Positions 10,592 through 63,257 are shown, counted from the stretch's first letter. The stretch is 64,000 bases of DNA from Candidatus Cloacimonadota bacterium (GCA_016838885.1 JAEKNW010000151.1:3024-67023); one strand, 5' to 3'. Numbers and translations: made by a program. The notes: generated by a model not told the origin, from the sequence alone.

Positions 10592-10614
10592 AACCCAAAT
10601 AATGCATTCGGGTT
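10592..10614. repeat. minimal copy of the AACCC...GGGTT inverted-repeat element family
   Basis: aacccaaataatgcattcgggtt: left and right family termini fused into one short hairpin. Ends 17 nt before the ATG at 10632. Confidence 0.7.
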
Positions 10615-10631
10615 AAAATGGAGATTAAATC

Positions 10632-11321
10632 ATGCGAATTAGTGGAGTCCAGAAGTTTTCAATGATAGATTTTAATGACAAGTTATGTGCTGTAATATTC
10701 ACCCAGGGCTGTAATCTTCAGTGTCCATATTGTCATAACCCAGAGCTAGTTCCGATGTTAAGTAATAAGCCTTTGATCCCAACAGATGATATTTTAGACT
10801 TTTTGAGAAGTAGAATGGGTAAGCTTGATGCTGTGGCAATAACTGGTGGAGAACCTCTTTTGCAGAAGAATCTAATCCCTTTTTTACAAGAGATTAAGCA
10901 TATGGGTTACTTGATAAAAATAGATACAAATGGATTGCTGTATCATAAGTTAAGTCAAATTATTGAGAGTGGGTTACTTGATTATTTAGCCATGGATATT
11001 AAGGCTTCACTCTCAAGTTATGAAAAAGTTGTAAAAGTTAAGATAGATGAATCAAGTTTATTGAAAAGTATTGAGTTAATAAAGAATTCAGGGATTGAGC
11101 ATGAGTTTAGAACAACTGTTGTAGAAGGACTTATCACTGAAGCTGATATTTATGATATAGGAGATTTAGTAGGAGGGAGCAATTATTTTATCCAGAATTT
11201 CACCAAATCTCATCATTTAGATGAAGCTTATGAAAATCAAATCGGTTTTAGTAAAGAAAAATTGAAGAGAATAACTTTAAATCTACAAAGCAAAGGGATT
11301 AGAGTAAATTTAAGGAGTTAG
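10632..11321 (+). CDS. radical-SAM activating enzyme, anaerobic ribonucleotide reductase activase (NrdG)-like
   Basis: 229 aa. GCNLQCPYCHNPE CxxxCxxC cluster near the N-terminus and GGEPLLQ, as in NrdG/PflA-type activases. No nrdD nearby. Confidence 0.78.
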   Translation: MRISGVQKFSMIDFNDKLCAVIFTQGCNLQCPYCHNPELVPMLSNKPLIPTDDILDFLRSRMGKLDAVAITGGEPLLQKNLIPFLQEIKHMGYLIKIDTNGLLYHKLSQIIESGLLDYLAMDIKASLSSYEKVVKVKIDESSLLKSIELIKNSGIEHEFRTTVVEGLITEADIYDIGDLVGGSNYFIQNFTKSHHLDEAYENQIGFSKEKLKRITLNLQSKGIRVNLRS

Positions 11322-11322
11322 T

Positions 11323-11628
11323 TTGAAGCAAGTTTCACAAGTAATTATTGAGATTATCAAAGCGATTCCACCAGGTAAAATATTGACTTATGGAGAGATT
11401 GCCAGACGGGCAGGCACTCCTGCAACTGCAAGATTAGTGAGTTATCTACTTCATAGCAGCTCTGAAAAATATTGCCTCCCTTGGCATCGCGTTATTAATT
11501 CTAAAGGTCAAATTTCTTTAACTGGTATGGCTGGTGAAGAGCAAAAGCAGAAGCTTCTATCTGAGGGCATTAAAATTCATTCCGGGAAGATTGACCTAGA
11601 AAAATACACCTATCAAGGACAATTATAA
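11323..11628 (+). CDS. alkyltransferase-like (ATL) protein, MGMT DNA-binding domain without the acceptor cysteine
   Basis: 101 aa. TTG start with AAGGAG RBS. ILTYGEIA...LPWHRVINSKG: PWHRV replaces the PCHRV active site, as in YbaZ/Atl1. Confidence 0.75.
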   Translation: MKQVSQVIIEIIKAIPPGKILTYGEIARRAGTPATARLVSYLLHSSSEKYCLPWHRVINSKGQISLTGMAGEEQKQKLLSEGIKIHSGKIDLEKYTYQGQL

Positions 11629-11689
11629 TTGACAAGATTTTAGTTCTGTAATAAAAGTGATTAATAAACTAGGAAAGGAGTAAAAGGAT

Positions 11690-12268
11690 ATGAATTTTCT
11701 CTTATCATTGATTTTTTTACCTTTAAATTTGCTCTTTGGAGCATCTATTATCTGGTTAATCAGATGGCTCTTATTCAATAAGAAACAGAGATATATTTTT
11801 AAGAAAAAGAATATCTTAACTCCCGGATTGATTATAAAAGGGAAAAGTTATGCTTTAGGTAAAGTTCGGAATACAGTTAAAGAGTACTTTGATCAGGTTG
11901 ATGATTTTGAATCTCATCAGGGTTATATCTATAACTGGGAAAAGAAGGTTTACCAGAAAGTATATGATGCTACTGAGTTTATAGATAATGCCCGTTATAT
12001 TCCTACCAGTGTAGCTGATTGGTTGAGGCATGCGATCGCATTTATTGCTAAAGACTTATCATCCCGTTTTTTAAGAACCTTCATACCTTACCTTTATGAA
12101 TATTATGAAGTAAATAATAAAATCGATATGATAGCGGATAAGATTGATTTAGTTATGATTGAGAGTTATTATAACCAATACTGTCATAAATTCCTGATGT
12201 ACTTTAACTTATTCATATTCTTCTTAGCAGGAATTTTAAATCAGATTCTTTTCCTAATCTTAGTCTAA
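11690..12268 (+). CDS. membrane protein of unknown function
   Basis: 192 aa with hydrophobic N- and C-terminal segments and an AAGGAG RBS. The stop TAA overlaps the first bases of repeat 12267..12380. Confidence 0.45.
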   Translation: MNFLLSLIFLPLNLLFGASIIWLIRWLLFNKKQRYIFKKKNILTPGLIIKGKSYALGKVRNTVKEYFDQVDDFESHQGYIYNWEKKVYQKVYDATEFIDNARYIPTSVADWLRHAIAFIAKDLSSRFLRTFIPYLYEYYEVNNKIDMIADKIDLVMIESYYNQYCHKFLMYFNLFIFFLAGILNQILFLILV

Positions 12269-12380
12269 CCCAAATAATGCAGTAGATCTTTGAGAATAGC
12301 ACTATATTCTTTTGCATTCTTCACCTGTGATACGTAGCTTTAACGAAGTATTACTAAAGCCCTACTGCACCATTCGGGTT
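12267..12380. repeat. 114-nt copy of the AACCC...GGGTT inverted-repeat element family
   Basis: Starts aacccaaataatgcagtagatctttgag and ends ctactgcaccattcgggtt. The interior matches the two flanks of the 226-nt copy at 47456 with the middle deleted. Confidence 0.85.
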
Positions 12381-12398
12381 AAAAAAAAGGAGTTCAAT

Positions 12399-13148
12399 AT
12401 GGCTAGTGATGTAATTGATTATAGAATATTAGGAGATGACTTCCAAGCAGTGGAAATTGAGTTAGACCCTGGTGAAGGAGTCAGAGCAGAAGTAGGTGCA
12501 ATGCTCTTTATGGAAGATGATATCCAAATGGATACTTCAACCGGAGGTGGACTATTTAGTGGATTTAAAAGAATGGTTTCTGGTGAAAGTTTCTTCATTA
12601 CGACCTTCTTGAATCAAGGAAGATTTAAAAGAAAAGTTCTCTTCTCAGCCCCTTATCCTGGAAGAATTATGCCTATAAACTTAACTACTTTTGGAGGAGA
12701 ATTCTTTTGTCAAAAAGATGCCTATCTCTGTTCAGCCAAGGGTATTGATGTAACTATTGCTTTTACTAAGAAATTTGGGGCAGGACTCTTTGGTGGAGAA
12801 GGCTTTATTTTACAAAAATTAACCGGTGATGGTCTAGCTTTTATTCATGCTGGTGGGACAATAATTAAGCGGGATTTAGCCCCAATGGAAAGATTACGCG
12901 TCGATACCGGTTGTTTAGTCGGTTTTGAAAAAAGTGTAGATTATGATATCCAATTCGTAGGAGGCTTCAAAAATGCTCTCTTTGGTGGAGAAGGATTATT
13001 CTTAACAACTCTAACAGGCCCAGGAACTGTTTATCTTCAATCTCTTCCTTTCTCTCGAATTTCAGATAGAATCCTCAGAGCTGCCGGTTCTAATAAAGGC
13101 GAAGTAAAAAGAGGCGGACTTCTTTCTACTATTCTCTCAGGAGATTAA
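12399..13148 (+). CDS. TIGR00266 / AIM24-like family protein
   Basis: MASDVIDYRILGDDFQAVEIELDPGE..., repeated GGEG(F/L) strings. ATG at 12399 has a GGAG RBS. The listed start 12312 lies inside the repeat. Confidence 0.75.
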   Translation: MASDVIDYRILGDDFQAVEIELDPGEGVRAEVGAMLFMEDDIQMDTSTGGGLFSGFKRMVSGESFFITTFLNQGRFKRKVLFSAPYPGRIMPINLTTFGGEFFCQKDAYLCSAKGIDVTIAFTKKFGAGLFGGEGFILQKLTGDGLAFIHAGGTIIKRDLAPMERLRVDTGCLVGFEKSVDYDIQFVGGFKNALFGGEGLFLTTLTGPGTVYLQSLPFSRISDRILRAAGSNKGEVKRGGLLSTILSGD

Positions 13149-13151
13149 TAT

Positions 13152-13901
13152 ATGAAGGTAATGGACCCGAAAACTCTCAAGTATGATGACAAACTTCTGA
13201 AAGCTAATCGTGAGTTAATGATGGAAGTTTATCGAAACATTTTTTTTGCTAAAAAGAAAGTGAATGTCTTTAAAAAACTTATTAAATCATTTCAAAGTTT
13301 AGAGAAAATTACGAAGCTGAAGAATGCTCAGCATGAGGCTATTAATCAAAAAGAGGCCGATAGATATTGTAAAAATCTTGGAAAAGCCTATGATTATATC
13401 TTAGATAAAATCAAAAATAAAGAACAGTTTGAGGGTCATTCAGATATTATTACCCTTCATGGATTTGTTGATCCGGAAAGCTTTTCTAGAAACCCCAGTG
13501 GCTATAGAAAAAAGGATGTGAAATTTGGTGATTTCATGCCCCCAGACCCTGGAGTCTTGTATTCTTTAATGGATAACTTAATCTATAACACTAATAAAAT
13601 AAAACTTCCCCAGATAAAAGGAATTTATTTTCATCATGAATTTGTAAGAATTCATCCCTTTGTCGACGGAAATGGCAGAACTGCCAGAATGGTAAAAAAC
13701 TGGATTTTGATGTATGAACTTTATCCACCTGTTTTTATTGATACACCTGAAGATAAGTTAAATTATATTGATGTTTTGGAAAGAAGCTTTAAAGGCTTCT
13801 TCGATAACCCTTTTGATGCTAACTCTGCCACCGAAGAATTTGCCAATCAAGAATTGATGAGAATTAATCAGAGTATTAAGTACTTATTGAATGATATTTG
13901 A
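13152..13901 (+). CDS. Fic-family protein (AMPylase/phosphocholine-transferase fold)
   Basis: Canonical Fic motif HPFVDGNGRTAR. Starts 3 nt after the preceding stop. Confidence 0.85.
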   Translation: MKVMDPKTLKYDDKLLKANRELMMEVYRNIFFAKKKVNVFKKLIKSFQSLEKITKLKNAQHEAINQKEADRYCKNLGKAYDYILDKIKNKEQFEGHSDIITLHGFVDPESFSRNPSGYRKKDVKFGDFMPPDPGVLYSLMDNLIYNTNKIKLPQIKGIYFHHEFVRIHPFVDGNGRTARMVKNWILMYELYPPVFIDTPEDKLNYIDVLERSFKGFFDNPFDANSATEEFANQELMRINQSIKYLLNDI

Positions 13902-13913
13902 TTTTTGTTTAAG

Positions 13914-14088
13914 GTTGATTTGTTTATTTGTTGAACCGTTGATTTGTTTATTTGTTGAACCGTTGATTTGTTTAATTGTTTAATTGATAAGAAGAAGGTT
14001 GAATTGTTGAACCGTTGATTTGTTTAATTGTTTAATTGATAAGAAGAAGGTTGAATTGTTGAACCGTTGATTTGTTTAATTGTTTAAC
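13914..14088 (+). repeat. perfect tandem-repeat array (24-nt unit x2, 52-nt unit x2, plus a partial unit)
   Basis: gttgatttgtttatttgttgaacc at 13914 and 13938. gttgatttgtttaattgtttaattgataagaagaaggttgaattgttgaacc at 13962 and 14014. Partial fifth unit from 14066. Confidence 0.9.
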
Positions 14089-14104
14089 TGAGAAAGAGGG
14101 AGCT

Positions 14105-16607: not shown

Positions 16608-19013
16608 ATGAATCTACCATGGTATTGGTTTATTGCCCCATTTGGTTCAATACTAGCACTTATTTTCGCTTTTATTTTTTACAGAGAGGTAAAAAAACAG
16701 GATCCCGGCAATGATAGAATGCAGGAAATAGCAGGTTATATTAGAGAGGGAGCTTATGCTTATCTAAAGCAACAATATATTGGAGTAAGTATCTTCTTTT
16801 TAATTGGTTTTCTAATTTTTAATCTTATGGCCTGGGGCTTAAATATCCTAAACACATGGGTTCCAATTGCATTTGTAACTGGAGGTTTTTTCAGTGGTTT
16901 AGCAGGATTCATTGGAATGAAAACTGCTACAATGGCCTCTTCAAGAACAGCTCAAGCTTGTAGTAAAAGTCTTAATAAAGGTCTTAAAGTAGCCTTCCGT
17001 GCAGGTTCTGTTATGGGCTTGGTGGTTGTTGGGTTGGCTTTAATCTTTATTTCAGCTTGGTTTTATTTCCTAACAAAGATAGGAATGGAGCTACACCAAA
17101 TAACTGTTGTGATGCTTTCCTTTGGGATGGGTGCTTCAACTCAAGCTCTTTTTGCTCGGCTTGGTGGAGGTATTTACACTAAAGCTGCCGATGTTGGAGC
17201 TGATTTAGTGGGAAAAGTTGAAGAAGGTATTCCTGAAGATGACCCACGTAACCCAGCTACTATTGCTGATAATGTTGGTGATAATGTGGGAGATGTTGCT
17301 GGAATGGGAGCTGACTTGTATGAATCTTATGTAGGTTCAATCTTGGCGACTTCAGCCTTAGGTATGGCAGCAGTTATTCAATTTGGGGCCGAATTTCAAG
17401 CTCTATGGGGCTTAAACTTCGTTATCGCACCCATGATTTTAGCAGGAATCGGAGCAATTCTCTCTATTCTTGGTATCTACATGGTATCTACTAAAGATAA
17501 TGCCACAAGTAAAGATTTAATGTTTGCTTTAAATAAAAGTGTTTATATCAGCTCAGCTTTGATAGCGATTGCCTCTTTCTTTATCTGTAAATATTTACTT
17601 CATCCTTCCATCTATCTAGGGGTCTTTATTGCTAGTATAACAGGACTTATTGCCGGTATCTTGATAGGCTATTCAACTGAAAGATATACATCAGATTCTT
17701 ATGCTCCGACTCAAGGAATCTCCAAGCAAGGGGAATACGGTCCTGCAACAGTAATTATCGATGGTTTAGCTGTTGGGATGAAATCTACTGCAGCGCCTGT
17801 TATCATAATTGCTACTGCTATTTTAATTGCTTTTAGTGCCAGCGGTGGTTGGGCAAGTATTGAATTGGGCCTCTATGGAATCGGTTTTGGAGCAGTTGGG
17901 ATGCTTGCTACTTTAGGTGTTACTTTAGCTATGGATGCCTTTGGTCCTATTGCTGATAATGCTGGGGGTAATGCAGAGATGTCAGCTCTTCCTGAAATAG
18001 TCAGAAGCAGAACAGATGCTCTTGATGCTGTTGGGAATACAACTGCTGCCACAGGTAAAGGTTTTGCTATAGGTTCGGCAGCCTTGACTGCTATGGCCCT
18101 GCTAGCAGCCTATATTGAAGAGATACGAATCTCTTTAATGCGCGTAGATCCACAACAACTAATTAATGGACTAAGCTTGAGAGTTGCAAGTGTCTCAGAT
18201 TTCATGACCCACTACAATGTCAATCTTATGAATCCCAAACTTTTAGCTGGAGCCTTTATTGGCTCAATGATAGCCTTCCTTTTCGCTGCTTATACCATAA
18301 AAGCTGTTGGAAATGCAGCAGGAGATATGGTAGCAGAAGTTCGCAGACAATTCAAAGAAATCCCCGGTATCTTAGAGGGAAAGACAACTCCTGATTATAA
18401 GAGATGTGTCTTAATCTCTACCAAAGGGGCTCAACGAGAAATGGTAAGACCTGCTATGTTAGCCCTGATTACTCCAATTATTGTTGGGTTAATTTTAGGT
18501 ATTCCCGGAGTTTTAGGACTTTTAGTAGGAACATTAATTTCAGGGTTAGTTTTAGCAATTCTTATGAATAACTCCGGTGGTGCGTGGGATAATGCGAAAA
18601 AGTTCATCGAAACAGGTCAATTTGGTGGTAAGAATTCAACTGCTCATAAAGCTTCCATAGTTGGAGACACTGTAGGAGACCCACTTAAAGATACAGCAGG
18701 TCCATCTTTGAATATCCTGATAAAGTTAATGAGTATAGTCTCTATTATTTTTGCAGGGCTAATCATCACCTACTCACCTTATATTGAAAGACTTTATGAT
18801 CAAGGCTCTTTTGAACTGAATCAGATGCTTATGCTTAATAATGCCAAGGAAGAAACTATGAAAGATTTGAAAGAGTGGGATCAAGAATATCAAAATAAAA
18901 AAAATCAAAAGAATAATGTGGAGTCTACATCTTCTGTAGATTCAGAAAATTCTGCTGCTGATGATTTAGTTATATCAGACCAAAAGGATATTCAGAATAT
19001 TGAAGCTGACTGA
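16608..19013 (+). CDS. hppA: membrane-bound ion-translocating pyrophosphatase (K+-dependent type) with C-terminal extension
   Basis: 801 aa multi-TM protein. [37 protein letters not shown] (Ala at the K+-dependence position). Confidence 0.92.
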
Positions 19014-19063
19014 GATGAGACTGCTCAAATTAATTAGTTGATTAACACGAATTACTCTATTTA

Positions 19064-19111
19064 AACCCGAATAGTGCAATAGAACTTTAGGTAAGAGTGC
19101 ATCATTCGGGT
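19064..19111. repeat. 48-nt copy of the AACCC...GGGTT element family
   Basis: aacccgaatagtgcaatagaactttaggtaagagtgcatcattcgggt. Ends 15 nt before the ATG at 19127. Confidence 0.8.
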
Positions 19112-19126
19112 AAAAAAAGGATTTTT

Positions 19127-23162: not shown

Positions 23163-25886
23163 ATGAAAAAGAACTTGTTATTTGTACTTGCTTTAGTTTT
23201 ATTAGTTAGTACATCTTTTGCTAACTCTTTTAGAGTTGCGGAAATGAGTAACACACAAAATTCAAGAGATAGTCGTTTTGAACAAATCGCTTGGATTGAT
23301 GATTTTGAAGGTGAAGATAACTGGACTATAGTTGATGAAACTGACGCTCCTCAAGAATGGCACATCTATAACGAAGGCGGAACTTATGGTGACGTTTGGT
23401 GGATGGGTGGAGACAATGGTGGTTATATTGATAACCTCTATTTAGTTTTAGACACTCCCGCTATCCCTCTTTCAGCAGGTAACTCAACTTTAACTTTCGA
23501 TTTAAACTATAATGTTGAAGAACCAGGTGGAACTGGCGAATACAACGGTTGGGATGGTATCAATATTCGTGTTTCTACTGACCAAGAAAACTGGACTGTT
23601 GTAAGTGGAACTCCTGCTTACGATGCAACATCAATGTATTCATTTGGTGAAATTCATGGTGAAGGTCCAAATGTTCCTGGATGGGGCGGCTCTTCTGATG
23701 GTTGGGTTAACGCATCTTTTGACTTATCAGCTTATGAAGGGCAAACAGTATATGTAAGATTTGCTTTTGCTTCTGACCCAGCTTTTAACACTGGTGATGA
23801 TGAAGATATGTTCGGTGTTAAAATTGATAACATCGCTCTTGCTTCATTCTCTAATAATGGTACTGCAGGCGACATGGTTGCTTCAAGTTTAGTTCCTCTA
23901 GGTGGAAACAACTGGTCTTTAGCTGAAGTTACTAATGCTTTCTCAGGAACTCATGTTTATCAATTACAGAATGAGGCAGGCTCTTACGATCCTAATCTTT
24001 TAAATGCAATTATTTCTCCAGTAATTACTCTTCCTACAGAAGGTGAAATATTAGCCACTTTCGAATTAATGGGTGACTTTACTGATCCTGATGCAGGTGG
24101 AGCTGTTTCTGCTCTTGACTACTGGGGATATGAAATTCAACTTGATGGTTCAAATGCATGGTTAGCTATGTCAAATCCATACGCAGATCCTAATGGAAAC
24201 AATTATATCTATTCAGACGCTCCTGATGTTTGGATGCCTGTACATGAAGCTTACACTTTAGATGCAAGACTTGATGACTATGCTGGTGAAGATGTAAGAT
24301 TTAAAATTTACTTCCGTTCTGACGATGATACTCCTCAAGGTTCAGGTATCATGGTTGATGACTTTAGAATAACTACTGAAGTTTTCCTTGCAGAGCCACA
24401 CAATCTTCAAGCAGAAGTACAAGGTGAAGAAGTTCAACTAACTTGGCAACAACCTCTTCAAATGACTGAAACAGAATTCGCATGGACTAATAGTGCATGG
24501 GTTAGCTATGTTAATGATGGACAGCCTTATGCAATTAAAGTTGAAAATAATGATAACTACGACAAACCTCTTTCAAAAATTGGTTTTAATTTATACAATC
24601 AAACTGGTGTAACCGGTTCAGCAACTGTCTATGCTTGGGCTAATGCCGGTGGTTTACCTGGTGCTGAACTAGCTTCTGTTGCCGGTATTACTGGAATGAT
24701 TTCTCAAACTTGGATGAATGTTGATGTAATGTCAGAAAACATCATAGTTCCTGCAAATGGTTCTATCTTTGTTGGTGTTGGCGATTATGATATCACCAAC
24801 CAAGGTTTACTTGCTGATGATACTTCTACTACCGTAGGTTCTTATGCTAATATCCAAGGAACTTGGACTATCGTTACTGAAGCATATACCGGACTTATGA
24901 ATGTCGGTATCAAAGCTACTATCATGGAAGACGATCCAACTCTTCCTTCAGCTGACAGCTACAAAGTTTATCATTCTGAAGATGGTAACAACTACACTTA
25001 CTTAGCAGAAACTGTTGACACAGAATATCTTCATACTTCACCAGTTCTTGGTGCTCTTAACTATTATAAAGTTACGGCACTCTTTGGTATTAACGAATCT
25101 CAAGGTATCACTACTACAGCATTCTTATTACCTGGTGGACTTACTGAAGTTATGAATGATGATGGAAGTGCTGAATCTGCAGCAACTGCAGGTGTAAGTC
25201 ATCTCATGGGTACTAAATTTGTTCACACCCACGAAGCTACTCTTCAATATATCAAATTCTATATTCATACCATGAATGGTGCAAATATGCTCTATAGAAT
25301 CTATACTGTAGAAAATGGTATGCCAGCTGAAAATCTTGCTACTGCAGTTATTCAAAACACTGAATTAGTTCAAGGTTGGAATACAATCGAATTACAAAAC
25401 GAATATACATTTGACAATGGACAGTTCTTCATTGCATTCGTTAATGTTAATAATGCTCCTCTTATCGGTTTAGATGCTGATACTCAAGGAAATTATTACC
25501 TATCTACTGACCAAGGTGCAAACTGGAATAATCAAGCTACAGGTAACCTTATGGTGAGAGCTTTAGTTGTTGATGGTTCTGTGGATAACTATGACGAAGA
25601 AATTGCTCCTGTAGTTTCTAATGTTGGTAACTATCCTAACCCATTCAACCCTCTAACTACCATCAGATTCAACATGTCAAAAGCTGGAAATGCTAATGTT
25701 TCTGTTTATAACCTTAAAGGCCAGTTAGTTAAAACTATCCTTAATGGTAATGTTGAAGCCGGTAATAAAGAAATCGTTTGGAATGGTACTGACACACAAA
25801 ACAACAATGTTGCTAGTGGCGTTTACTTCTTCAGAGTAAAAACTGACAACCAAACTATTAATAGAAAAATGGTTCTTCAAAAATAA
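23163..25886 (+). CDS. secreted T9SS-cargo protein (C-terminal sorting domain)
   Basis: Signal peptide MKKNLLFVLALVLLVSTSFA. C-terminal NYPNPFNP...VYNLKGQLV...GVYFFRV fits the T9SS type-A CTD pattern. GGAGG RBS. Confidence 0.75.
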   Translation: MKKNLLFVLALVLLVSTSFANSFRVAEMSNTQNSRDSRFEQIAWIDDFEGEDNWTIVDETDAPQEWHIYNEGGTYGDVWWMGGDNGGYIDNLYLVLDTPAIPLSAGNSTLTFDLNYNVEEPGGTGEYNGWDGINIRVSTDQENWTVVSGTPAYDATSMYSFGEIHGEGPNVPGWGGSSDGWVNASFDLSAYEGQTVYVRFAFASDPAFNTGDDEDMFGVKIDNIALASFSNNGTAGDMVASSLVPLGGNNWSLAEVTNAFSGTHVYQLQNEAGSYDPNLLNAIISPVITLPTEGEILATFELMGDFTDPDAGGAVSALDYWGYEIQLDGSNAWLAMSNPYADPNGNNYIYSDAPDVWMPVHEAYTLDARLDDYAGEDVRFKIYFRSDDDTPQGSGIMVDDFRITTEVFLAEPHNLQAEVQGEEVQLTWQQPLQMTETEFAWTNSAWVSYVNDGQPYAIKVENNDNYDKPLSKIGFNLYNQTGVTGSATVYAWANAGGLPGAELASVAGITGMISQTWMNVDVMSENIIVPANGSIFVGVGDYDITNQGLLADDTSTTVGSYANIQGTWTIVTEAYTGLMNVGIKATIMEDDPTLPSADSYKVYHSEDGNNYTYLAETVDTEYLHTSPVLGALNYYKVTALFGINESQGITTTAFLLPGGLTEVMNDDGSAESAATAGVSHLMGTKFVHTHEATLQYIKFYIHTMNGANMLYRIYTVENGMPAENLATAVIQNTELVQGWNTIELQNEYTFDNGQFFIAFVNVNNAPLIGLDADTQGNYYLSTDQGANWNNQATGNLMVRALVVDGSVDNYDEEIAPVVSNVGNYPNPFNPLTTIRFNMSKAGNANVSVYNLKGQLVKTILNGNVEAGNKEIVWNGTDTQNNNVASGVYFFRVKTDNQTINRKMVLQK

Positions 25887-25908
25887 GAAGATACTATAAA
25901 TAAATATC

Positions 25909-25937
25909 AGAGGCTGAGAAATCAGCCTCTTTTTTTG
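25909..25937 (+). terminator. rho-independent terminator
   Basis: agaggctga GAAA tcagcctct hairpin followed by TTTTTTT. Confidence 0.8.
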
Positions 25938-25948
25938 TTTATTTGTTT

Positions 25949-25985
25949 AACCCGAATGGTGCAGTAGAACTTTGATGAAGAGTGC
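25949..25985. repeat. solo left terminus of the AACCC...GGGTT element family
   Basis: aacccgaatggtgcagtagaactttgatgaagagtgc. No matching right terminus was found downstream. Confidence 0.7.
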
Positions 25986-26117
25986 TGGGATTGCGGGCTT
26001 CAAGCCCGTATTAGAAACCGGTAACTCGTTGCCGGTTCTTATCATCTTGCTGTTAGCAAGATAGATCATTTCTCCTCTTTAGGAGAAATGAATACGGGCT
26101 GGAAGCCCGCAATCCCA
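25986..26117. other. GC-rich 132-nt inverted-repeat element enclosing three hairpins (candidate structured RNA or MITE)
   Basis: The 27-nt arms tgggattgcgggcttcaagcccgtatt (25986-26012) and aatacgggctggaagcccgcaatccca (26091-26117) are complementary with 1 mismatch. Hairpins lie at 26016-26037, 26044-26062 and 26068-26089. Confidence 0.6.
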
Positions 26118-26406
26118 AAGAATATGCCCGCAATCCCAGTTAAGAATGCCAGCAGGGATGTTAGCGCTCCCAGAGAAGAAGTCGTGCTCCAAGTCAGGAA
26201 AAGCTCATTTTGCATGAGTCTGTCTATTATCAATCACATTACCACTGTGGTTTTACCACTTGTCTATTGTATCACTGTTAGCTTTTTTTCTAATAGTGAC
26301 CTAATAGATGCCCAATAGACCCCCAATAAAGACCCAGTAAATGGCAGAGAGTTCTACAAAGTTCATAATGGCAGAAAGTTATACAAAGATGTTTTGCTCA
26401 TGATAA

Positions 26407-26429
26407 TTTCCACCAGACTTGAACTTGAG
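26407..26429 (-). repeat. 23-nt motif CTCAAGTTCAAGTCTGGTGGAAA (inverted copy)
   Basis: The + strand reads tttccaccagacttgaacttgag, the exact reverse complement of 31484-31506 and 55003-55025. Confidence 0.85.
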
Positions 26430-26604
26430 TCTAAAAAAACACCATAGGCTTCCAGATTACTGCTGGAGGTGATGGGATGAATTTCGGACTTTTTTACAAA
26501 ATATCAAGAGCAACTAGAGGCTAAGTATTCTTTTATCTAGTCCACTTAGAGCTTAAACAAATCCAAAAGTTCAATATGTATAAATAGCATCTCAGAAAAA
26601 AACA

Positions 26605-26644
26605 TTGACAAGAATTCATATCAATATTTTATAGACCAGTGGTC
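26605..26644 (+). promoter_or_regulatory. candidate promoter plus palindromic operator upstream of the TetR gene
   Basis: TTGACA at 26605-26610 with an AT-rich -10 region about 17 nt downstream. Perfect palindrome GACCAgTGGTC at 26634-26644, between the -10 region and the RBS. Confidence 0.4.
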
Positions 26645-26666
26645 GAATATAAGAATAGGAGTCGAG

Positions 26667-31350: not shown

Positions 31351-31483
31351 TATTGATCATATCGTATATCTTGACGCTAAAGCAAAAGAACTTGAGAATC
31401 TCCAAAATGGAAGCAAGACAATGATTATTCGCGGAGCAATGGGAAGAAAATTACCATACAGACTGGTCAATAATTTCTTATGG
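31351..31483 (+). pseudogene. 5' fragment of a disrupted gene
   Basis: Downstream of a GAGGAGA RBS the frame reads (I)DHIVYLDAKAKELENLQNGSKTMIIRGAMGRKLPYRLVNNF. It has no ATG and then runs into the 23-nt repeat motif and repeat debris. Confidence 0.3.
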
Positions 31484-31506
31484 CTCAAGTTCAAGTCTGG
31501 TGGAAA
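31484..31506 (+). repeat. 23-nt motif CTCAAGTTCAAGTCTGGTGGAAA
   Basis: Exact copy. Inverted relative to 26407-26429. Confidence 0.85.
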
Positions 31507-31598
31507 ATATTTAGCATTATTTTGCACTAGATATTGTATTACACTAATTTACGGATTAGAATGTACTCTTGATAGTAGTTTTTAGTTGAATAAGACAT

Positions 31599-31790
31599 AA
31601 TCCTGAAGGGATAGGTCTTATATCCCTAAAGGGGATAAATAGTTTAGCCCAGGGTAAGATGCTGAAAGTATCGCAACCCTGGGTTATGATGCATATAAAA
31701 AGTGTAACCCTGTAAGGGTTTAATAAAAACATGTATATCAAAGACTTATTATATTACATTGTTGGCATTATATTAAACCCTTACAGGGTT
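31599..31790. repeat. REP-like hairpin cluster related to the RAYT-flanking modules
   Basis: Contains aaatagtttagcccagggtaagatgctgaaagtatcgcaaccctgggtta (compare 55091-55140) plus short GAA/GTA-loop hairpins (atccct..agggat, aaccctgtaagggtt, aacccttacagggtt). Confidence 0.8.
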
Positions 31791-36184: not shown

Positions 36185-36221
36185 ATGTCAAGACATTTAT
36201 TAATTTAGGGAAATGTTTATC
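36185..36221. repeat. 37-nt direct repeat, left copy (carries TTGACA on the minus strand upstream of rplM)
   Basis: atgtcaagacatttattaatttagggaaatgtttatc. Identical except for 1 nt to 40205-40241. Confidence 0.9.
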
Positions 36222-36223
36222 AC

Positions 36224-36498
36224 TAATGGTGCAGTAGAGCTTTAGTAATACTTCGCTAATACATTCTACATAGCTTTCTACTTCTCTAAAGCTACGTAGA
36301 ATGTATTAGCGAAGTAGAAAGCTAAGTATCACAGGTGAAGAGTGTAGATTCTTTTAGCAAAAATAAATTACAGAATCTTCTTGAATATATATTATATACC
36401 AGTTAAGGATGCCCCCCATATCTCCCTCAAAGATGGAGATTTGGCACTTTTTCTGCTTTAGCGACTTCTTTCTAAATCTATAATACACCATTTCGTTG
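36224..36498. repeat. rearranged 275-nt copy of the AACCC...GGGTT element family (truncated left end, degenerate right end)
   Basis: Starts aatggtgcagtagagctttag (the family terminus lacking AACCCG). The interior is colinear with parts of the 47456 copy. It contains perfect 21-nt (36249-36269 / 36296-36316) and 14-nt (36271-36284 / 36311-36324) inverted repeats. Confidence 0.7.
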
Positions 36499-36514
36499 CA
36501 TAATATAAGGTAAC

Positions 36515-39256: not shown

Positions 39257-39273
39257 ATTCTATAATACTCACA

Positions 39274-40158
39274 CTATCTAATAACGTGATATTCTGAAAT
39301 GGGGTCTTTAAAAAAATCAATATTCATTTGTTCATAGTTATTGTTTTTCAATGTTTCCTCAATTCTATTAGTACAAATCTCAATATAATCAATTTTATTC
39401 TTTTTGTGCAATAAAGCATATTCATTTTTTTCAATTCCAATGAAATTCCTACCTTCTATCATAGCCGAAATTAAAAAACTACCACTACCACAAGCATTAT
39501 CTAATATATAATCTCCGGGGTTAGAAAACGTTCTGATCAAATATCTTCCTAATTCAATAGGCTTTTGTGTTGGATGGAATACTTTCCCCTCTGATTCAGC
39601 AGTTTTAAAGTAAACAAAATCATCATGTTGTTCGTCATCAGCAAAAGTAATTATATCAGTAGGATAACGATCCCCATTGCTTTTAACATGACGTGGTTTG
39701 AAATCTCCATAGCTTCCTGTATATTGATCTTTTCTAAAACCCTTGTCATATGCTAACCCTTGTTCCATTTGAGGATTATAGGTTGTTTGATTTTTATAAA
39801 AAACACAAATATCTTCATGTTTCCTTAATGGTTGTTTCTTTGCATTCAGAAAATTGGTAGCCTTAGATTTTATCCAAACGATTTTATATTTAAATTCTTT
39901 TGGATTACTAAGGATTAACTTAGCCGTGAACAAACCTTGTGATGTTAAAACAATAGCTCCGTTATCTTTGACTATTCGTCTATACTGGTGCCAAAGCTTA
40001 TCTAAATCAATAACTGAATCCCATTTATTTTGCGTTGTTCCATAAGGTAAGTCACATAGGACCATATCAATACTATTATCTGGGAAATTTTGCAATACCT
40101 CTAAACAATCACCTTGAATAACTTTGTTTTTAAATTTTTCTATTTTAGAAATATTCAT
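39274..40158 (-). CDS. beta-class N6-adenine/N4-cytosine DNA methyltransferase
   Basis: Motif IV DLPYG precedes motif I ILDNACGSGSFLISA (beta-class order). FHPTQKPIEL. The start is taken at MNISKIEKF (ATG 40158) because the listed ATG 40206 lies in the duplicated TTGACA element. Confidence 0.8.
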   Translation of the reverse strand: MNISKIEKFKNKVIQGDCLEVLQNFPDNSIDMVLCDLPYGTTQNKWDSVIDLDKLWHQYRRIVKDNGAIVLTSQGLFTAKLILSNPKEFKYKIVWIKSKATNFLNAKKQPLRKHEDICVFYKNQTTYNPQMEQGLAYDKGFRKDQYTGSYGDFKPRHVKSNGDRYPTDIITFADDEQHDDFVYFKTAESEGKVFHPTQKPIELGRYLIRTFSNPGDYILDNACGSGSFLISAMIEGRNFIGIEKNEYALLHKKNKIDYIEICTNRIEETLKNNNYEQMNIDFFKDPISEYHVIR

Positions 40159-40204
40159 TTTTATACCTAATATTTTTTTATTATTTTTTATACCCTGCAA
40201 AATC

Positions 40205-40241
40205 ATGTCAAGACATTTATTAATTTGGGGAAATGTTTATC
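40205..40241. repeat. 37-nt direct repeat, right copy
   Basis: atgtcaagacatttattaatttggggaaatgtttatc. 4020 bp from the left copy. Confidence 0.9.
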
Positions 40242-40249
40242 CCTTGGAT

Positions 40250-47397: not shown

Positions 47398-47426
47398 TTG
47401 ACTTAATTCCAGCTAAATATTATACT
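47398..47426 (+). promoter_or_regulatory. sigma70-type promoter upstream of the dapA leader
   Basis: TTGACT (47398-47403), 17-nt spacer, TATACT (47421-47426). Confidence 0.5.
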
Positions 47427-47455
47427 TGTAAAAATATATAAAGTTACTCGCATTA

Positions 47456-47681
47456 AACCCAAATAATGCAGTAGAATTTAGGGATAAAGCGAATAGCACT
47501 ATCTTCTTTTGCAAAAGTAAGCTACATCATTTTCAGGAATATATATATTATATGCCTTTTATGGATGCACCCTCTGTGTCCCCCTCAAAGAAGGGGATTT
47601 TGCTAAAAGAACCTAGCACTCTTCACCTGTGATACGTAGCTTTAGCGAAGTATTATCAAAGTTCTAATGCCCATTCGGGTT
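47456..47681. repeat. 226-nt full-length copy of the AACCC...GGGTT element family
   Basis: Starts aacccaaataatgcagtagaatttaggg and ends ctaatgcccattcgggtt. Lies between promoter 47398 and the dapA RBS. Confidence 0.85.
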
Positions 47682-47702
47682 AAACGAGAAAAGGAGAAAG
47701 AA

Positions 47703-54788: not shown

Positions 54789-55090
54789 AACTCTACCTCT
54801 CTTAAATTTCTTTTTTTACTAGTATAATACATAAAGGGTTTTATGTCAAATTAATTAATTACCCTGAATATTTGTTTAATTGTTTATTTGTTGAATTGTT
54901 GAAGAAGAAGAGCTTTCACACAAATTGACCCGAATTATTACAAATTACAAGAATGTAGAGCAAAAGATCTTTTGCCCTACTTCACAGGAGCGAAACCTTT
55001 GGCTCAAGTTCAAGTCTGGTGGAAATAATATAGGAAAATGAGAATATTTCACTTATATAGTGATTCATCATATATCCCTGAAAGGGATTA

Positions 55091-55140
55091 AATAGTTTAG
55101 CCCAGGGTAAAATTCCTGAAAGGAATTGCAACCCTGGGTA
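55091..55140 (+). repeat. 50-nt REP module (nested hairpin)
   Basis: aatagtttagcccagggtaaaattcctgaaaggaattgcaaccctgggta. cccagggt/accctggg outer stem and aattcc/ggaatt inner stem. Confidence 0.9.
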
Positions 55141-55259
55141 CTTGATGTATAAACAACACCCTACCCTGAAAGGGTTAAATAATATCTTATACACCAAAGA
55201 CATATTAAATACATTATTTATTCTTTTATTAAAACCTTACCCTGAAAAGGTTTAATAAA

Positions 55260-55715
55260 TTAATCCCAAAAATACCGTTCATCAATTTCCATTTTATTTT
55301 TGGTCATGAACAACCTAAGTTCATCTTGGAAAGAAACCTTTTTATGATGCTCACTTTGATTGTTAATATAATCAATTGTTATTTGTTTTTGTGCTTGACC
55401 TATGGAAAATCCCCCATAACCTGCTTGCCAGTAGAAGTTTGAATATTCGTCTCCTTTAGTCTTTATCCATTTAGATGTAGACCTCTTTATATCTCCTACT
55501 ATGTTCTTAAAACAAATATTCTTTGATAAATTGAGAAGAATATGGATATGATCTTCATACCCACCTATACAAACTGGATATGAATCATTTTCGTAGATTA
55601 TTTTTGCTATATAAGAAAATAATTGTTCTCTGATATCAGAATGTTTTAAAAAGGGAACTCTGTTTTTGGTAGAAAATACAACATGCATATAAATTTGAGC
55701 AACTGACTGTGCCAT
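55260..55715 (-). CDS. IS200-like Y1 (HUH) transposase / REP-associated tyrosine transposase (RAYT)-type protein
   Basis: YMHVVFSTKNRVPFL N-terminus, HUH motif DHIHILL, C-terminal YWQAGYGGFSIG. ATG 55715 is preceded by GGTGGTGA. No tnpB partner. Confidence 0.8.
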   Translation of the reverse strand: MAQSVAQIYMHVVFSTKNRVPFLKHSDIREQLFSYIAKIIYENDSYPVCIGGYEDHIHILLNLSKNICFKNIVGDIKRSTSKWIKTKGDEYSNFYWQAGYGGFSIGQAQKQITIDYINNQSEHHKKVSFQDELRLFMTKNKMEIDERYFWD

Positions 55716-55823
55716 AAATATCACCACCTGTTATTTAATGATGTAATAATTAAAAATATGAACAGTTTGTCAATTAAAAAATATTATGTATCCCTTTCAG
55801 GGATAATTTAGATTTTATCTAAA

Positions 55824-55873
55824 TACCCAGGGTTGCAATTCCTTTCAGGAATTTTACCCTGGGCTAAACTATT
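55824..55873 (-). repeat. 50-nt REP module, inverted copy
   Basis: Exact reverse complement of 55091-55140. Confidence 0.9.
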
Positions 55874-56278
55874 TATCCCCCTTGGGGATTTGAAGAGTTA
55901 CATACCCTCAATAATTTTTTGATATCTTTTCAATGGTAAGGTCTTCATATATTTCTTTTTGGCTCTAGTTCGAGTCTGGTGGAAATAATACAGGAAAATG
56001 AGAATATTTCACTAATATAGTGATTCATCATATATCCCTGAAAGGGATTTTTTAAATGCATCATTCTGGATAAATAAATAAACAATTCAACAAAATTTTC
56101 GTGTAAAAGCTCTTCTTTCTTTTCGGTGTATTCAGTGTTTCCAGTGGCTAAGTTTTCTTCTTCTTTTTTGTGTTCTTTGTGCCTTTGTGGTAAAAAATTC
56201 TCCCCGTCTCCCCGTCTCCCCGTCTTTTCGCGAATAGCGAAAACTGTGGTGAAAAATCTCCCTCTTTTCGCGAGTAGC

Positions 56279-56317: not shown

Positions 56318-56343
56318 ATTTATAATTAATTAAATTTTCTTAA

Positions 56344-57477: not shown

Positions 57478-57486
57478 TATTTCCTC

Positions 57487-59352: not shown

Positions 59353-59373
59353 TATTTCCTCCGTTTATAATAA

Positions 59374-59739: not shown

Positions 59740-59746
59740 AATTTAT

Positions 59747-60418: not shown

Positions 60419-61061
60419 CTTGAGAAATCACTTTATCTTCTGCAGCTCTTTCTGGGTGAGGCATCATACCTAAAACATTCTTATCTTCATTAAGAATACC
60501 AGCGATATTATCGATTGCTCCATTTGGATTACTCTCTTTGGTGATCTCTCCCAATTCATTACAATATCTGAAAGCTATCAAATCTTTATCTTGTAGAGAC
60601 TTTAAGCCATCATTACTAATGAAGTAGTTCCCCTCTTTATGAGCGATTGGGATATCGAGAGCTTTACCTGGAGTTAAACCTTTGGTATACACAGAATCCC
60701 TATTCACTGAGGTAATAAATTGATGCTGGCAGATGAATTTTAAGCTTTCATTCATCATCAAAGCCCCGGGAAGGAGTCCGATTTCAGTAAGAATTTGAAA
60801 GCCGTTACAGATACCCATCACCAAGCCACCCTGCTTAGCAAATTTTATAACTTCAGCTATTATAGGCGAGAATTTAGCAATTGCTCCACACCTTAAATAA
60901 TCACCGTAAGAGAAACCTCCGGGTATGATAATTAAGTCGGGGTTGATTAGATTATTGTCTTTATGCCAGACAAAATCAACTTGATGCCCTCTAATTTTTC
61001 CAATGTGAAAAGCGTCATGATCACAGTTAGAACCAGGGAAAGAAATGACATTTATTTTCAT
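60375..61061 (-). CDS. purQ: phosphoribosylformylglycinamidine synthase, glutaminase subunit
   Basis: MKINVISFPGSNCDHD, GICNGFQ (catalytic Cys), MPHPER. Confidence 0.92.
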   Translation of the reverse strand: MKINVISFPGSNCDHDAFHIGKIRGHQVDFVWHKDNNLINPDLIIIPGGFSYGDYLRCGAIAKFSPIIAEVIKFAKQGGLVMGICNGFQILTEIGLLPGALMMNESLKFICQHQFITSVNRDSVYTKGLTPGKALDIPIAHKEGNYFISNDGLKSLQDKDLIAFRYCNELGEITKESNPNGAIDNIAGILNEDKNVLGMMPHPERAAEDKVISQDGQEIFSSIEKFFT

Positions 61062-61063
61062 TA

Positions 61064-61321
61064 CTATTCTCCGGTAATATGTTCAAGATTCCAAGAATAA
61101 GTTTCAGTATTAGGGTTAGCTAATAACTTTTCACATATTTCGTGAATCTCATCTTCAGCTCTTTCCAGGTCATCACTTTTCAGTTTAATTTCGATAAACT
61201 TACTTACCCGAACTTCTTCAATATTATCATAACCGATAGAATGGAGTGAGTTCATCACTTGCTTACCTTGTGGGTCAAGCACACTTGGCTTAAGGGTAAC
61301 GAATACTTTGGCTTTAATCAT
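61064..61321 (-). CDS. purS: phosphoribosylformylglycinamidine synthase subunit PurS
   Basis: 85 aa. VFVTLKPSVLDPQGKQV pattern. Immediately upstream of purQ. Confidence 0.88.
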   Translation of the reverse strand: MIKAKVFVTLKPSVLDPQGKQVMNSLHSIGYDNIEEVRVSKFIEIKLKSDDLERAEDEIHEICEKLLANPNTETYSWNLEHITGE

Positions 61322-61395
61322 ATCATCCTCTTCTTTATTTATATTTTTCTATAATTCATAAATTTTAGACTGCTAATCCCTGTCAAGATTGTTAA

Positions 61396-63063
61396 TTATC
61401 TTACACTTCTGAGAGCTTGAGCAATGTTTAGTGAATAATCACCAATATGTTCAAAATGTCTTAACAAATCTATATAAAGGAGCTCTGCTTGAATATCTGA
61501 ATTACCTTGAGTAATTCTTTCTCGAGCATTATGTTTATATTTCTTTCTAATATTATTAATCTGATTTTCCAGTTCATAAGCTTGTGCCAGATCTTCACGC
61601 TTCATATGTTCTAGCATTTTAACATTATAAAGGGACATAAATTCTTTCACAGCTTTGGCAATATCATTTATCTCTTGAGTTGCTTCAGGATGCATCTCTA
61701 ACTTTCTATCATATTTTTTCTTAGTGATTAACATGATTCTTAGTACTGAGTCCCCGATTCCTTCTAACTCATGCACAATTCTAATCATAGCATTGATATT
61801 CTTAGCATATTTATCAGTTAGAGCTTCTTCAGAGCAGGTAGTCAAAAAATTAGTGATTTCTCTTTGCATTTCGTCTGTTAATCTCTCTTGAGTACTAATT
61901 TTATCTACCTCATCTCCTAATTTCTTATGTGGATTAAAAAATAAGTGTAAAGAGGTTTCAAACATATCTTCACAAATTCTAACCAGCTTGAAAATCTCCT
62001 GGCGAACTTGTTCAAGATTAAAAGTTGTCGGATCTACTCGACCAGACTGTAAATAAACCAATTTATACTCTTTATTTAGGTCATTTTTATTAGGTTTTAC
62101 TATCTTCTCAACCACTAAAGCAAAATACTTTATTAACCAAATGCAGATAAATGTATTCATAACATTGAACACCGTATGGAAGAGACTTAGTTTCAAGGGA
62201 AGATTTGAGAGAATATCTTGCCAAGGAGAAAGCCAGTTAATAAATTGAATGAAATAAACAAAAATAAAAGTCATCCATACCACCCCAAAGATGTTGAAGA
62301 GAAGATGAGCACGAGCTGCTCGACGGGCATTAACGGTAGTTCCTATTGAGGCCAAATAGGCTGTAACGGTAGTTCCAATGTTTTCACCTAAAACAATCAT
62401 AGAGGCAGTCGGAAAATCTATCCACCCCTTGTAGGCCATAGTTACAGTGATTGCCATGGCTGCACTTGATGATTGCACAGCAATTGTTAAGCCTGCCCCT
62501 AAGGCCACAAATATTACATAAGATAAGAAGCCTCTTCCTGTGAAGTCTTTAACAAATTGAAAAATATCCGGATGGTTGTTTATATCAGGAACAGAATCTT
62601 TAAGAAAAGAGAGTCCTAAGAAAAGCAAACCAAAGCCGATTAAAACTTCAGCCCATTCACGTTTCATCCTATGCTTGGAGAAAAATAAGGGTAGTCCGAT
62701 ACCTATCAAAGGAAGGGCTATAGCTTGGATTTTAAATTTAAAACCAACAAAAGAGACAATCCAAGTTGTAACAGTGGTACCTATGTTGGCACCCATAATT
62801 ACCCCGATAGATTGAATTAGATTTAACAAGCCGGCATTGACAAAACTTACCACCATAACAGTAGTTGCAGATGAAGATTGAATGAGAGCTGTTATCATAA
62901 AACCGGTAAAAACTGCCATAAATCTATTCTTAGTCATGTAATTCAGAATAGACTTCATTTTATCACCTGCTACTTTGTGAATACCATCACTCATCACTTT
63001 CATTCCATAAAGAAAGACACCAAGAGAACCTAATAAATTAAAAACCAACATGATAGAGTCCAT
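61396..63063 (-). CDS. Na+/phosphate cotransporter-family protein with C-terminal PhoU-like domain
   Basis: 555 aa. Duplicated QSSSAT/QSSSAA and GANIGTT/GENIGTT motifs of the NptA family. C-terminal helical HxxxGD (HELEGIGD, EHIGDY) PhoU-like repeats. Confidence 0.85.
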   Translation of the reverse strand: MDSIMLVFNLLGSLGVFLYGMKVMSDGIHKVAGDKMKSILNYMTKNRFMAVFTGFMITALIQSSSATTVMVVSFVNAGLLNLIQSIGVIMGANIGTTVTTWIVSFVGFKFKIQAIALPLIGIGLPLFFSKHRMKREWAEVLIGFGLLFLGLSFLKDSVPDINNHPDIFQFVKDFTGRGFLSYVIFVALGAGLTIAVQSSSAAMAITVTMAYKGWIDFPTASMIVLGENIGTTVTAYLASIGTTVNARRAARAHLLFNIFGVVWMTFIFVYFIQFINWLSPWQDILSNLPLKLSLFHTVFNVMNTFICIWLIKYFALVVEKIVKPNKNDLNKEYKLVYLQSGRVDPTTFNLEQVRQEIFKLVRICEDMFETSLHLFFNPHKKLGDEVDKISTQERLTDEMQREITNFLTTCSEEALTDKYAKNINAMIRIVHELEGIGDSVLRIMLITKKKYDRKLEMHPEATQEINDIAKAVKEFMSLYNVKMLEHMKREDLAQAYELENQINNIRKKYKHNARERITQGNSDIQAELLYIDLLRHFEHIGDYSLNIAQALRSVR

Positions 63064-63092
63064 TAGAACAGAATCCTTTGTTATATTATTTT

Positions 63093-63257
63093 AACCCGAA
63101 TGATACAGTAGAACTTTAGGGAAGAGTACAGATTCTTCCAGCAAAGTAAGTTACAGAATTTGATTGCATATAATATATATATTCAAGAAAATTATGTAGC
63201 TTACTTTTGCAGAAGAATATATTGCTATTCACAAAGGTCTACTGCATTATTTGGGTT
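63093..63257. repeat. 165-nt copy of the AACCC...GGGTT element family
   Basis: Starts aacccgaatgatacagtagaactttaggg and ends ctactgcattatttgggtt. The left end lies 29 nt upstream of the minus-strand ATG at 63063. Confidence 0.85.

Follow-up and report, generated by a model that had tools for sequence, protein, structure and literature searches.

We found that seven short repeats dispersed over a 64,000-nucleotide stretch of a Candidatus Cloacimonadota bacterium contig (GCA_016838885.1, JAEKNW010000151.1:3024-67023; hereafter the window) are, with a probability of about 0.88, copies or decay products of a family of miniature inverted-repeat transposable elements (MITEs), with ends recognised by a DDE transposase of the IS1380 family encoded elsewhere and with TTNAA as their target. 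A preliminary description, drawn from the window by itself, had taken the repeats for non-autonomous mobile elements, and this idea is borne out by target-site duplications, by IS1380-family partners with the same termini and by precise empty sites in relatives. The same description had the elements parked just upstream of ribosome-binding sites (RBSs), an idea that is weakly supported. The family appears to be previously undescribed, as had been suspected: a literature search on IS1380-derived or Cloacimonadota MITEs found no description and nothing relevant, and an Rfam scan of the whole window at gathering scores returned 0 families. MITEs and the IS1380 family themselves are known. ARAGORN found neither tRNA nor tmRNA in the window.

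Reading each site directly placed all seven copies where the preliminary description had put them. The 27-nt terminus AACCCRAATRRTGCAGTAGAACTTTAG, used as a degenerate pattern, matches seven times in the window (≤3 mismatches) and had 0 matches in 100 dinucleotide-preserving shuffles. A word-7 BLAST of 68 family members against the window found no further copies there; the 23-nt copy, which is below BLAST size, was read by eye. The copies have core or element lengths of 19-285 nt, in a window of ~35% G+C. Their internal deletions are nested as first proposed, since a multiple alignment bears out the indel relations between them: the 114-nt copy equals the 226-nt copy minus its middle, and the 165-nt copy is without two internal modules. 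The ends are indeed inverted repeats; their boundaries had to be moved, because the true ends are CCC...GGG and the outer AA/TT is part of a 5-bp TTNAA duplication.

This revision comes from the flanking sequence. Two flank classes occur, ...TTT/AACCC...GGGTT/TAA... and ...TTA/AACCC...GGGTT/AAA..., so the element is CCC...GGG and its flanks are a 5-bp duplication. Identical 5-mers flank the CCC/GGG boundary in 47 of 72 independent insertions, and other offsets or lengths k give 0-9. The duplicated 5-mers are TTAAA (24), TTTAA (19), TTGAA (2), TTCAA (1) and the outlier ATTAT (1). No extended target context beyond TTNAA was found in the 72 insertions, the sequence outside the 5 bp having only background A+T richness, and the A-run as a part of the target was rejected for this lack of preference. 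The 5-bp duplication accounts for both the 'AACCC/GGGTT' look of the ends and the 'A-run' that follows the element.

The termini are widespread. A scan of one genome per species for the 20-nt terminus AACCCRAATRRTRCARTAGA found at least 80 loci, and the survey figures given here refer to the loci listed. These belong mostly to Cloacimonadota metagenome-assembled genomes (MAGs) and to one Cyclobacteriaceae MAG; further MAG labels are Sulfurovum, Campylobacteraceae, Roseivirga, Flavobacteriales, Balneolia, Armatimonadota, Zhuqueibacterota and Patescibacteria. The terminus is common to MAGs assigned to ~8 phyla, with interiors unrelated between groups, and some bin assignments may be wrong, as an Armatimonadota contig holds the same 276-nt element as a Cloacimonadota contig. 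Inverted terminus pairs (≤4 mismatches) number 67, with modal lengths of 165-167, 180 and 195 nt and termini of ~20 nt. A metagenome scan with the exact G-type terminus found two loci only. In relatives, MITEs often lie back to back or nested, terminus abutting terminus (L002 2795-2830, L032 4039-4093, L077 1964-2005, L090 9595-9636), an arrangement that suggests that TTNAA sites made at element ends may be re-used as targets.

Elements with the same termini and a transposase gene of their own were found in other genomes. In a Balneolia MAG (L073), a 1599-bp element with these termini carries a single 484-aa open reading frame (ORF), which scores 191.2 bits on the NCBIfam IS1380 model (cut-off 180) and also matches Pfam DDE_Tnp_1_4. 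Homologues of this transposase number 604 at E ≤ 1e-20. One of them, P0008 (469 aa), is encoded by four identical 1694-bp copies (L081-L084) in the Cloacimonadales MAG chromosome OY829950.1, which holds many MITEs besides; the four have ends CCCAAATAATGCA... and perfect duplications TTAAA, TTTAA, TTTAA and TTAAA. Partner elements of both sizes have one ORF, CCC ends and 5-bp duplications. In the ISfinder description, IS1380-family elements are 1.5-2 kb long, with one ORF, ends starting CC and a 4-5-bp duplication. The AlphaFold model of P0008 (pLDDT 82) gave the Tn5 transposase as its best match in a fold search (E = 2.5e-7, TM 0.44) and the piggyBat transposase as the next (E = 3.9e-4, TM 0.34); a phmmer search of the transposase against the PDB gave chance matches only, and its relatives were found via the fold search. 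Judged by their sequences, the autonomous partners are best taken as a divergent clade of the IS1380 family, whose transposases have been placed as the prokaryotic outgroup of piggyBac (PMC10813416). Members of the family make 5-bp duplications at AT-rich sites (PMC7527135), lie directly upstream of genes, carry outward promoters, capture adjacent DNA and activate downstream genes (PMC9330008). In three Cloacimonadota MAG contigs (L028, L060, L075) the termini lie no more than ~50 nt from the contig ends, and the interior of L028 matches the L073 insertion sequence (IS); the full-length IS probably breaks MAG assemblies.

Comparison across relatives showed that the insertions are lineage-specific and that orthologous sites are empty. 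Conservation of position, which the preliminary description had named as the mark of a cis-regulatory RNA, was not seen at the dapA, AIM24 or PPase-ABC sites. In the dapA region the window is 78% identical to OY829950.1, and this chromosome (L049) has 'ctcgcaTTAAAcgagaaaaggag' (...TTAAAcgagaaaaggag...) without the element; upstream of dapA the relative reads ctcgcaTTAAAcgagaaaaggagaatagaaATG, and the window reads ctcgcaTTAAA, then the 222-nt element, then TTAAAcgagaaaaggagaaagaaATG. The AIM24 protein of the window is 81-89% identical to proteins of OY829950.1 and related assemblies. The junction between a 192-aa ORF and AIM24, which contains the 110-nt core in the window, is 12 nt long and empty (...TTAAAAGGAG...; e.g. 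gcTTAAAAGGAGtttaaaATG) in five relative loci (L085-L090), and the PPase-ABC junction has no element in L087. Upstream of the NrdG-like gene, L087 and L088 carry a different micro-copy of ~25 nt between two TTAAA and L085 and L090 have none; the L087/L088 micro-copy may go back to one old insertion that these loci share, or the spot may have been hit repeatedly. Because the empty sites already have an A-rich spacer and a Shine-Dalgarno (SD) sequence, the A-run and the SD are host sequence (plus the duplicated TTAAA) and not element. Directly past the Fic gene the window has tandem repeats (13914-14101; 52-nt units of GTTGATTTGTTTATTT-like 8-nt subunits), and the orthologous spot in OY829950.1 (L090 9617-9782) holds a 166-nt MITE instead. 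The family has the features of MITEs: it is shorter than 500 bp, non-coding, dispersed and multicopy, has terminal inverted repeats and a target duplication of fixed length, has termini in common with a transposase-encoding element, and is polymorphic for presence at orthologous sites.

We propose that the ~20-bp terminal inverted repeats (CCCAAATAATGCAGTAGA...) would be the recognition ends of an IS1380-family DDE transposase, which would mobilise the copies in trans by inserting them into TTNAA, mostly TTAAA or TTTAA, and duplicating 5 bp. As the target is near-palindromic, the ends look like AACCC...GGGTT and are followed by an A-run. The 114-, 45- and 19-nt forms, with their internal deletions, would then arise from slippage across the hairpin arms. 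Copies would persist only at harmless places, namely past terminators, at operon junctions and in the stretch from a promoter or upstream stop to the SD, where TAA stops and A-rich spacers would create TTNAA sites. Most survivors in the window would be of this last kind, probably co-transcribed and forming a hairpin of their own that does not occupy the RBS, with near-neutral effects on expression.

Several observations weigh against this explanation. Among the 72 insertions, 25 have imperfect duplications; in the window this applies to three of the five copies with two ends. P0008 reaches 175.8 bits on the NCBIfam IS1380 model, just below the cut-off of 180, with a match that spans model positions 1-416 of 419. 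A tblastn search found no transposase gene of the IS1380-type partner in the 64-kb window (nothing below E = 2.9), and mobilisation in trans in this genome would rest on the 78%-identical relative. Finally, the RBS-proximal excess of the window copies and their uniform orientation (5/5) are not fully accounted for by the availability of TTNAA.

Each full copy folds by itself into one long hairpin. In the mRNA sense the 23-nt micro-copy has a fold energy of -4.6 kcal/mol and the other four RBS-proximal copies range from -18 to -54 kcal/mol, and the A-run, SD and start codon are unpaired in all five folded leaders. The preliminary description had the elements transcribed as a long 5'-untranslated-region (UTR) hairpin abutting the RBS; the computed fold, with the SD unpaired, agrees with this, and co-transcription is what we infer. 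Covariation was examined in the 165-nt type, with 16 copies drawn from several genomes. Paired cells make up 96%, compared with 40-52% in slid controls, and both-sided changes occur in 13 of 64 pairs vs 7.2 ± 1.4 in shuffles (0/500 shuffles reach 13), in sequences that are related and in palindromic DNA, which may homogenise without selection.

The position of the copies relative to genes was assessed by excising the elements, calling ORFs of at least 100 codons and comparing the insertion points with all intergenic TTNAA sites. Every paired copy in the window (5/5) lies no more than 30 nt from a start codon, vs a null of 19.8% (p = 0.0003), and so do five of all seven copies (p = 0.004), both post hoc figures obtained on the pattern that prompted the test. 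Related Cloacimonadota have 6 of 37 copies within 30 nt (null 11.1%, p = 0.22) and the same six within the narrower limit of 20 nt (null 8.0%, p = 0.07), and the Cyclobacteriaceae MAG has 1 of 19 within 30 nt (null 12.2%, not significant). A significant enrichment at start codons over intergenic placement is present in the window, then, but neither in the related Cloacimonadota nor in the Cyclobacteriaceae MAG. Many copies elsewhere adjoin terminators or fall between convergent genes. The end that faces a nearby start codon varies in relatives, with no orientation bias there, and the better-folding strand in co-directional contexts is sense in 8 and antisense in 8. We detected no convincing outward promoter: the 226-nt copy has a single 9/12 match, and the 114- and 165-nt copies have no match.

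These results bear on the suggestion that the element targets, or was selected or co-opted at, the site just upstream of the RBS as a leader hairpin that might stabilise the mRNA, be cut by RNase III or tune translation. The window itself argues for it: the spacing of 14-29 nt from ...GGGT(T) to the start codon that had been noticed for five copies is correct, five of the seven being more than the null predicts, and the same end faces the gene in all five. This excess is not reproduced within 30 nt in the 37 Cloacimonadota or 19 Cyclobacteriaceae copies, however, and either end faces the gene in relatives, where the 8:8 split of co-directional contexts also points away from a leader function; the weak excess at 20 nt in relatives pulls the other way. 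The hairpins are very stable in four of the five copies and leave the SD free, and other IS1380-family elements activate downstream genes (PMC9330008), but the copies lack a convincing outward promoter, the target logo is TTNAA alone, the orthologous sites are empty with nothing conserved, and the window statistic is post hoc. As a general property, RBS targeting or leader co-option is not supported, given that the SD pre-exists in empty sites and relatives show no significant excess, and we consider it quite unlikely that it explains the repeats. The RBS-proximal pattern of the window is real but local. It looks like a by-product of the target and of tolerated sites and not like a built-in regulatory role, and a modest survivorship effect behind the RBS-proximal copies is plausible. 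Positions in 5' leaders, stable folds and covariation would also fit a conserved cis-regulatory leader RNA, riboswitch-like and not mobile. We find this reading hardly credible, as the genes that follow the copies are unrelated to one another, relatives have empty sites, copies also lie past terminators and between convergent genes, Rfam gives no match and target duplications are present.

Equally hard to credit is that the repeats are REP/REPIN palindromes spread by a RAYT (IS200-like Y1) transposase. Their termini do contain GTAG, the elements are extragenic hairpins, and the window has a Y1 transposase gene (55260-55727, Pfam Y1_Tnp 79.6 bits); yet the palindromes that flank this gene (CCCTGAAAGGG type) are its own and unrelated to the repeats, the 54-56 kb region is free of AACCCRAAT termini, and the 5-bp duplications and the ~20-bp ends common to a DDE-encoding IS are both foreign to REPs. 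Integron attC sites (RYYYAAC...GTTRRRY cores, cassette arrays) were also rejected as a candidate: the copies are scattered between housekeeping genes in either orientation and form no cassette array, and the target duplications, the DDE partner and the empty sites speak against this reading as well.

The hairpins of the MITE family are asymmetric between strands. In most copies the two strands differ by 10-37 kcal/mol in how well they fold, and the arms differ from each other by transitions that read as G·U on one strand and as A·C on the opposite one. In consensus sequences of subfamilies whose interiors are unrelated, the strong and weak strands have, respectively, 6 and 0 G·U pairs in the Cloacimonadales 165-nt subfamily, 9 and 3 in the Cyclobacteriaceae 180-nt, 10 and 0 in the Sulfurovum 166-nt, 5 and 1 in the second Cloacimonadota type (167-nt) and 5 and 1 in the Roseivirga subfamily, or 35 vs 5 when the five are pooled (Fisher combined p 0.001, the independence of the subfamilies being assumed). 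The favoured strand runs from the right-end (RE)-like to the left-end (LE)-like terminus, antisense to the transposase orientation, in the 3-4 subfamilies in which LE and RE can be told apart. In a young Cyclobacteriaceae burst the private mutations are close to symmetric (13 vs 9 positions), which places the bias in the source copies. The mRNA sense is the weaker strand in four of the five RBS-proximal window copies. The bias could possibly stem from selection for an RNA or single-stranded DNA (ssDNA) fold that aids propagation, or from strand-biased mutation of long-lived master copies.

The first of these origins leads to a proposal that would add to the MITE explanation and is not an exclusive rival of it, namely that the hairpin is used single-stranded (as RNA or ssDNA) in the fixed polarity 5'-RE-like...LE-like-3' and that its fold matters for propagation. 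The 35:5 ratio in subfamilies with unrelated interiors, the energy difference between strands and the maintenance of the stems via compensatory changes argue for such use, and the near-symmetric private mutations point to selection on source copies and not on each insertion. The transposase has known relatives (Tn5, piggyBac) whose substrate is double-stranded DNA, however, orientation relative to host transcription is random, so that a transcript of the right polarity is not assured, and strand-biased mutation on long-lived master copies could contribute; the polarity, moreover, is matched in only 3-4 subfamilies, and their independence is assumed. We regard single-stranded use as doubtful, and the broader claim that across several phyla MITEs with IS1380-type termini are selected to fold as one strand of fixed polarity, antisense to the transposase, as somewhat more doubtful still. 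If it were true, a DDE system of the piggyBac/Tn5-like kind would have an RNA or ssDNA stage, or a structured antisense RNA, that governs which copies propagate.

Table 1. Repeat copies in the window and a promoter-like match near one of them, with boundaries, flanks and gene contexts.
Feature	Position	Strand	Core and flanks	Context
Micro-copy	10589..10617	+	Core CCCAAATAATGCATTCGGG 10594-10612 (19 nt); TTAAA at 10589-10593 and 10613-10617	Right TTAAA ends 14 nt before ATG (10632) of radical-SAM activase-like gene
Internally deleted 226-nt type	12264..12383	+	110-nt core 12269-12378; flanks TCTAA / TTAAA, imperfect duplication	Operon junction; left flank gives TAA stop of ORF 11690-12268; AIM24-family start 12399
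Short deletion derivative	19061..19115	.	45-nt core 19066-19110; flanks TTAAA / TAAAA	Between H+-PPase gene (16608-19013) and ABC exporter gene (ATG 19127)
Solo end	25946..25986	-	TTTAA + 36 nt G-type terminus from CCC 25951	Directly past terminator of gene 23163-25886
Decayed, rearranged copy, ~285 nt	36216..36500	-	Both termini mutated (CACTAATGGTGCAG... and ...CACCATTTCGTT)	One edge of low-GC restriction-modification block
226-nt type	47453..47684	+	222-nt core 47458-47679; perfect TTAAA duplication 47453-47457 / 47680-47684	18 nt upstream of dapA ATG (47703), ~30 nt downstream of promoter-like site
'165-nt' type, near-perfect long hairpin	63090..63260	-	161-nt core 63095-63255; flanks TTTAA / TTTTA	Between hisS-like gene terminator (63286-63265) and Na/Pi cotransporter gene (ATG 63063, -)
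Sigma-70-like promoter match	47398..47426	+	TTGACT-17-TATACT, 10/12, consensus match only	Upstream of dapA insertion

Pfam matches confirmed the identities first given to the five genes downstream of the RBS-proximal copies: a radical-SAM activase-like (NrdG-like) gene, AIM24, an ABC exporter, DHDPS/dapA and a Na/Pi cotransporter. The TTGACT-17-TATACT motif is conserved upstream of the empty dapA site in L049, and because this promoter-like match lies ~30 nt upstream of the insertion, the dapA MITE would sit inside the dapA 5' UTR. At the solo end near 25949, family membership is limited to the terminal 38 nt, which are 100% identical over that length to the end of the L002 copy, and the remainder of the element is replaced by unrelated sequence with its own inverted repeat. 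That repeat adjoins the solo end (25986-26012 / 26091-26117, 96%) and has several G+C-rich hairpins between its arms; the region 25887-26666 contains no ORF of 80 aa or more and has no Rfam match. The decayed copy at 36216..36500 has an internal duplication of a 29-nt palindrome at 36249-36316. A 4-kb block of 29.5% GC vs ~35% has a 40-bp direct repeat on its two sides (36185-36224 / 40205-40244, 95% identical); it lies between rpoD and rplM and encodes a type IIG-like N6_Mtase/Eco57I protein (36515-39256, -) and an N6_N4 DNA methylase (39274-40206, -). The 36185-40244 block looks like an acquired restriction-modification island with a decayed MITE at its edge, and a link of the block to IS1380-type capture of adjacent DNA is conceivable by analogy (cf. 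PMC9330008).

The window has other repeats and a change in base composition. The IS200-like Y1 transposase gene (-) is enclosed by 63-nt inverted arms (55081-55143 / 55821-55883, 94% complementary) rich in REP-like palindromes, e.g. ATCCCTGAAAGGGAT and CCCAGGG...CCCTGGG, and the unit is bracketed by 92-nt direct repeats (54998-55089 / 55958-56049, 96% identical). From this layout, 54998-56049 looks like a RAYT-type unit with a repeat family of its own, unrelated to the MITE. Palindromes of the CCCTGAAAGGG type lie at 31622-31660, 31699-31726, 55155-55182 and 55231-55258. A second dispersed repeat, TGGCTCAAGTTCAAGTCTGGTGGAAA..., occurs at 31481-31514, 26403-26439 (inverted), 55000-55033 and 55960-55993 and is common to related Cloacimonadales genomes (L053, L018, L031, L049, L072). 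The GC skew changes sign at ~31-32 kb, where the gene strand switches from + to -, and the cumulative skew peaks at 28-32 kb; this change may mark a terminus or origin-type boundary of replication, or be a plain gene-strand effect.

Among known systems, the IS1380 family (ISEcp1, ISPme1, IS1380) is like the elements described here in that the partners are 1.6-1.7 kb long with a single DDE gene, ends starting CC and a 5-bp AT-rich duplication, and in that IS1380 elements often lie directly upstream of genes (PMC7527135, PMC9330008). It differs in that the window holds only non-autonomous derivatives, the target is a defined TTNAA and not merely AT-rich, no outward promoter was detected, and the partner transposases form a divergent clade. 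A second parallel is with piggyBac, which has CCC...GGG termini and a TTAA target and from which MITEs such as MER85 derive. The likeness lies in the CCC...GGG termini, the duplicated palindromic TTAA-like target, the short non-autonomous derivatives and the predicted fold of P0008, which matches piggyBat, although more weakly than Tn5 (E = 3.9e-4 vs 2.5e-7). PiggyBac is specific for TTAA (PMC7351741). Its duplication is 4 bp, whereas the elements here duplicate a 5-bp TTNAA, a target similar to that of the piggyBac superfamily but not identical, and have a bacterial host.

Shorter repeats of other bacteria offer further comparisons. Like the Correia/NEMIS (Neisseria), ERIC (enterobacteria) and RUP/BOX (pneumococcus) elements, the window MITEs are intergenic, have inverted-repeat ends, occur in many copies and form long hairpins. 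Those elements are 100-250 nt long, are often co-transcribed with flanking genes and have size variants that arise via internal deletion; RNase III processing, promoter creation and effects on stability have been demonstrated for Correia and ERIC. Their sequence and partner transposase family are unrelated to those of the window MITEs. REP/REPIN-RAYT systems likewise consist of extragenic palindromic doublets that form hairpins, but REPs go with a Y1 transposase and make no target duplication, whereas the window MITEs have 5-bp duplications and DDE partners.

The findings give an annotation to a repeat abundant in Cloacimonadota and also carried by MAGs assigned to ~8 phyla, and the CCC...GGG and TTNAA rules allow it to be masked in genome and non-coding RNA scans. 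They would also account for breaks in MAG assemblies and for differences between strains in insertions at operon junctions and in 5' UTRs. The interest of the family comes mainly from its defined TTNAA target, its spread across phyla and the one-strand G·U bias. The bias is interesting if it reflects a single-stranded stage; otherwise this is an ordinary MITE family. A clade of the IS1380 family tied to a defined near-palindromic target parallels the TTAA and CCC...GGG of piggyBac, and bears on how target specificity evolves.

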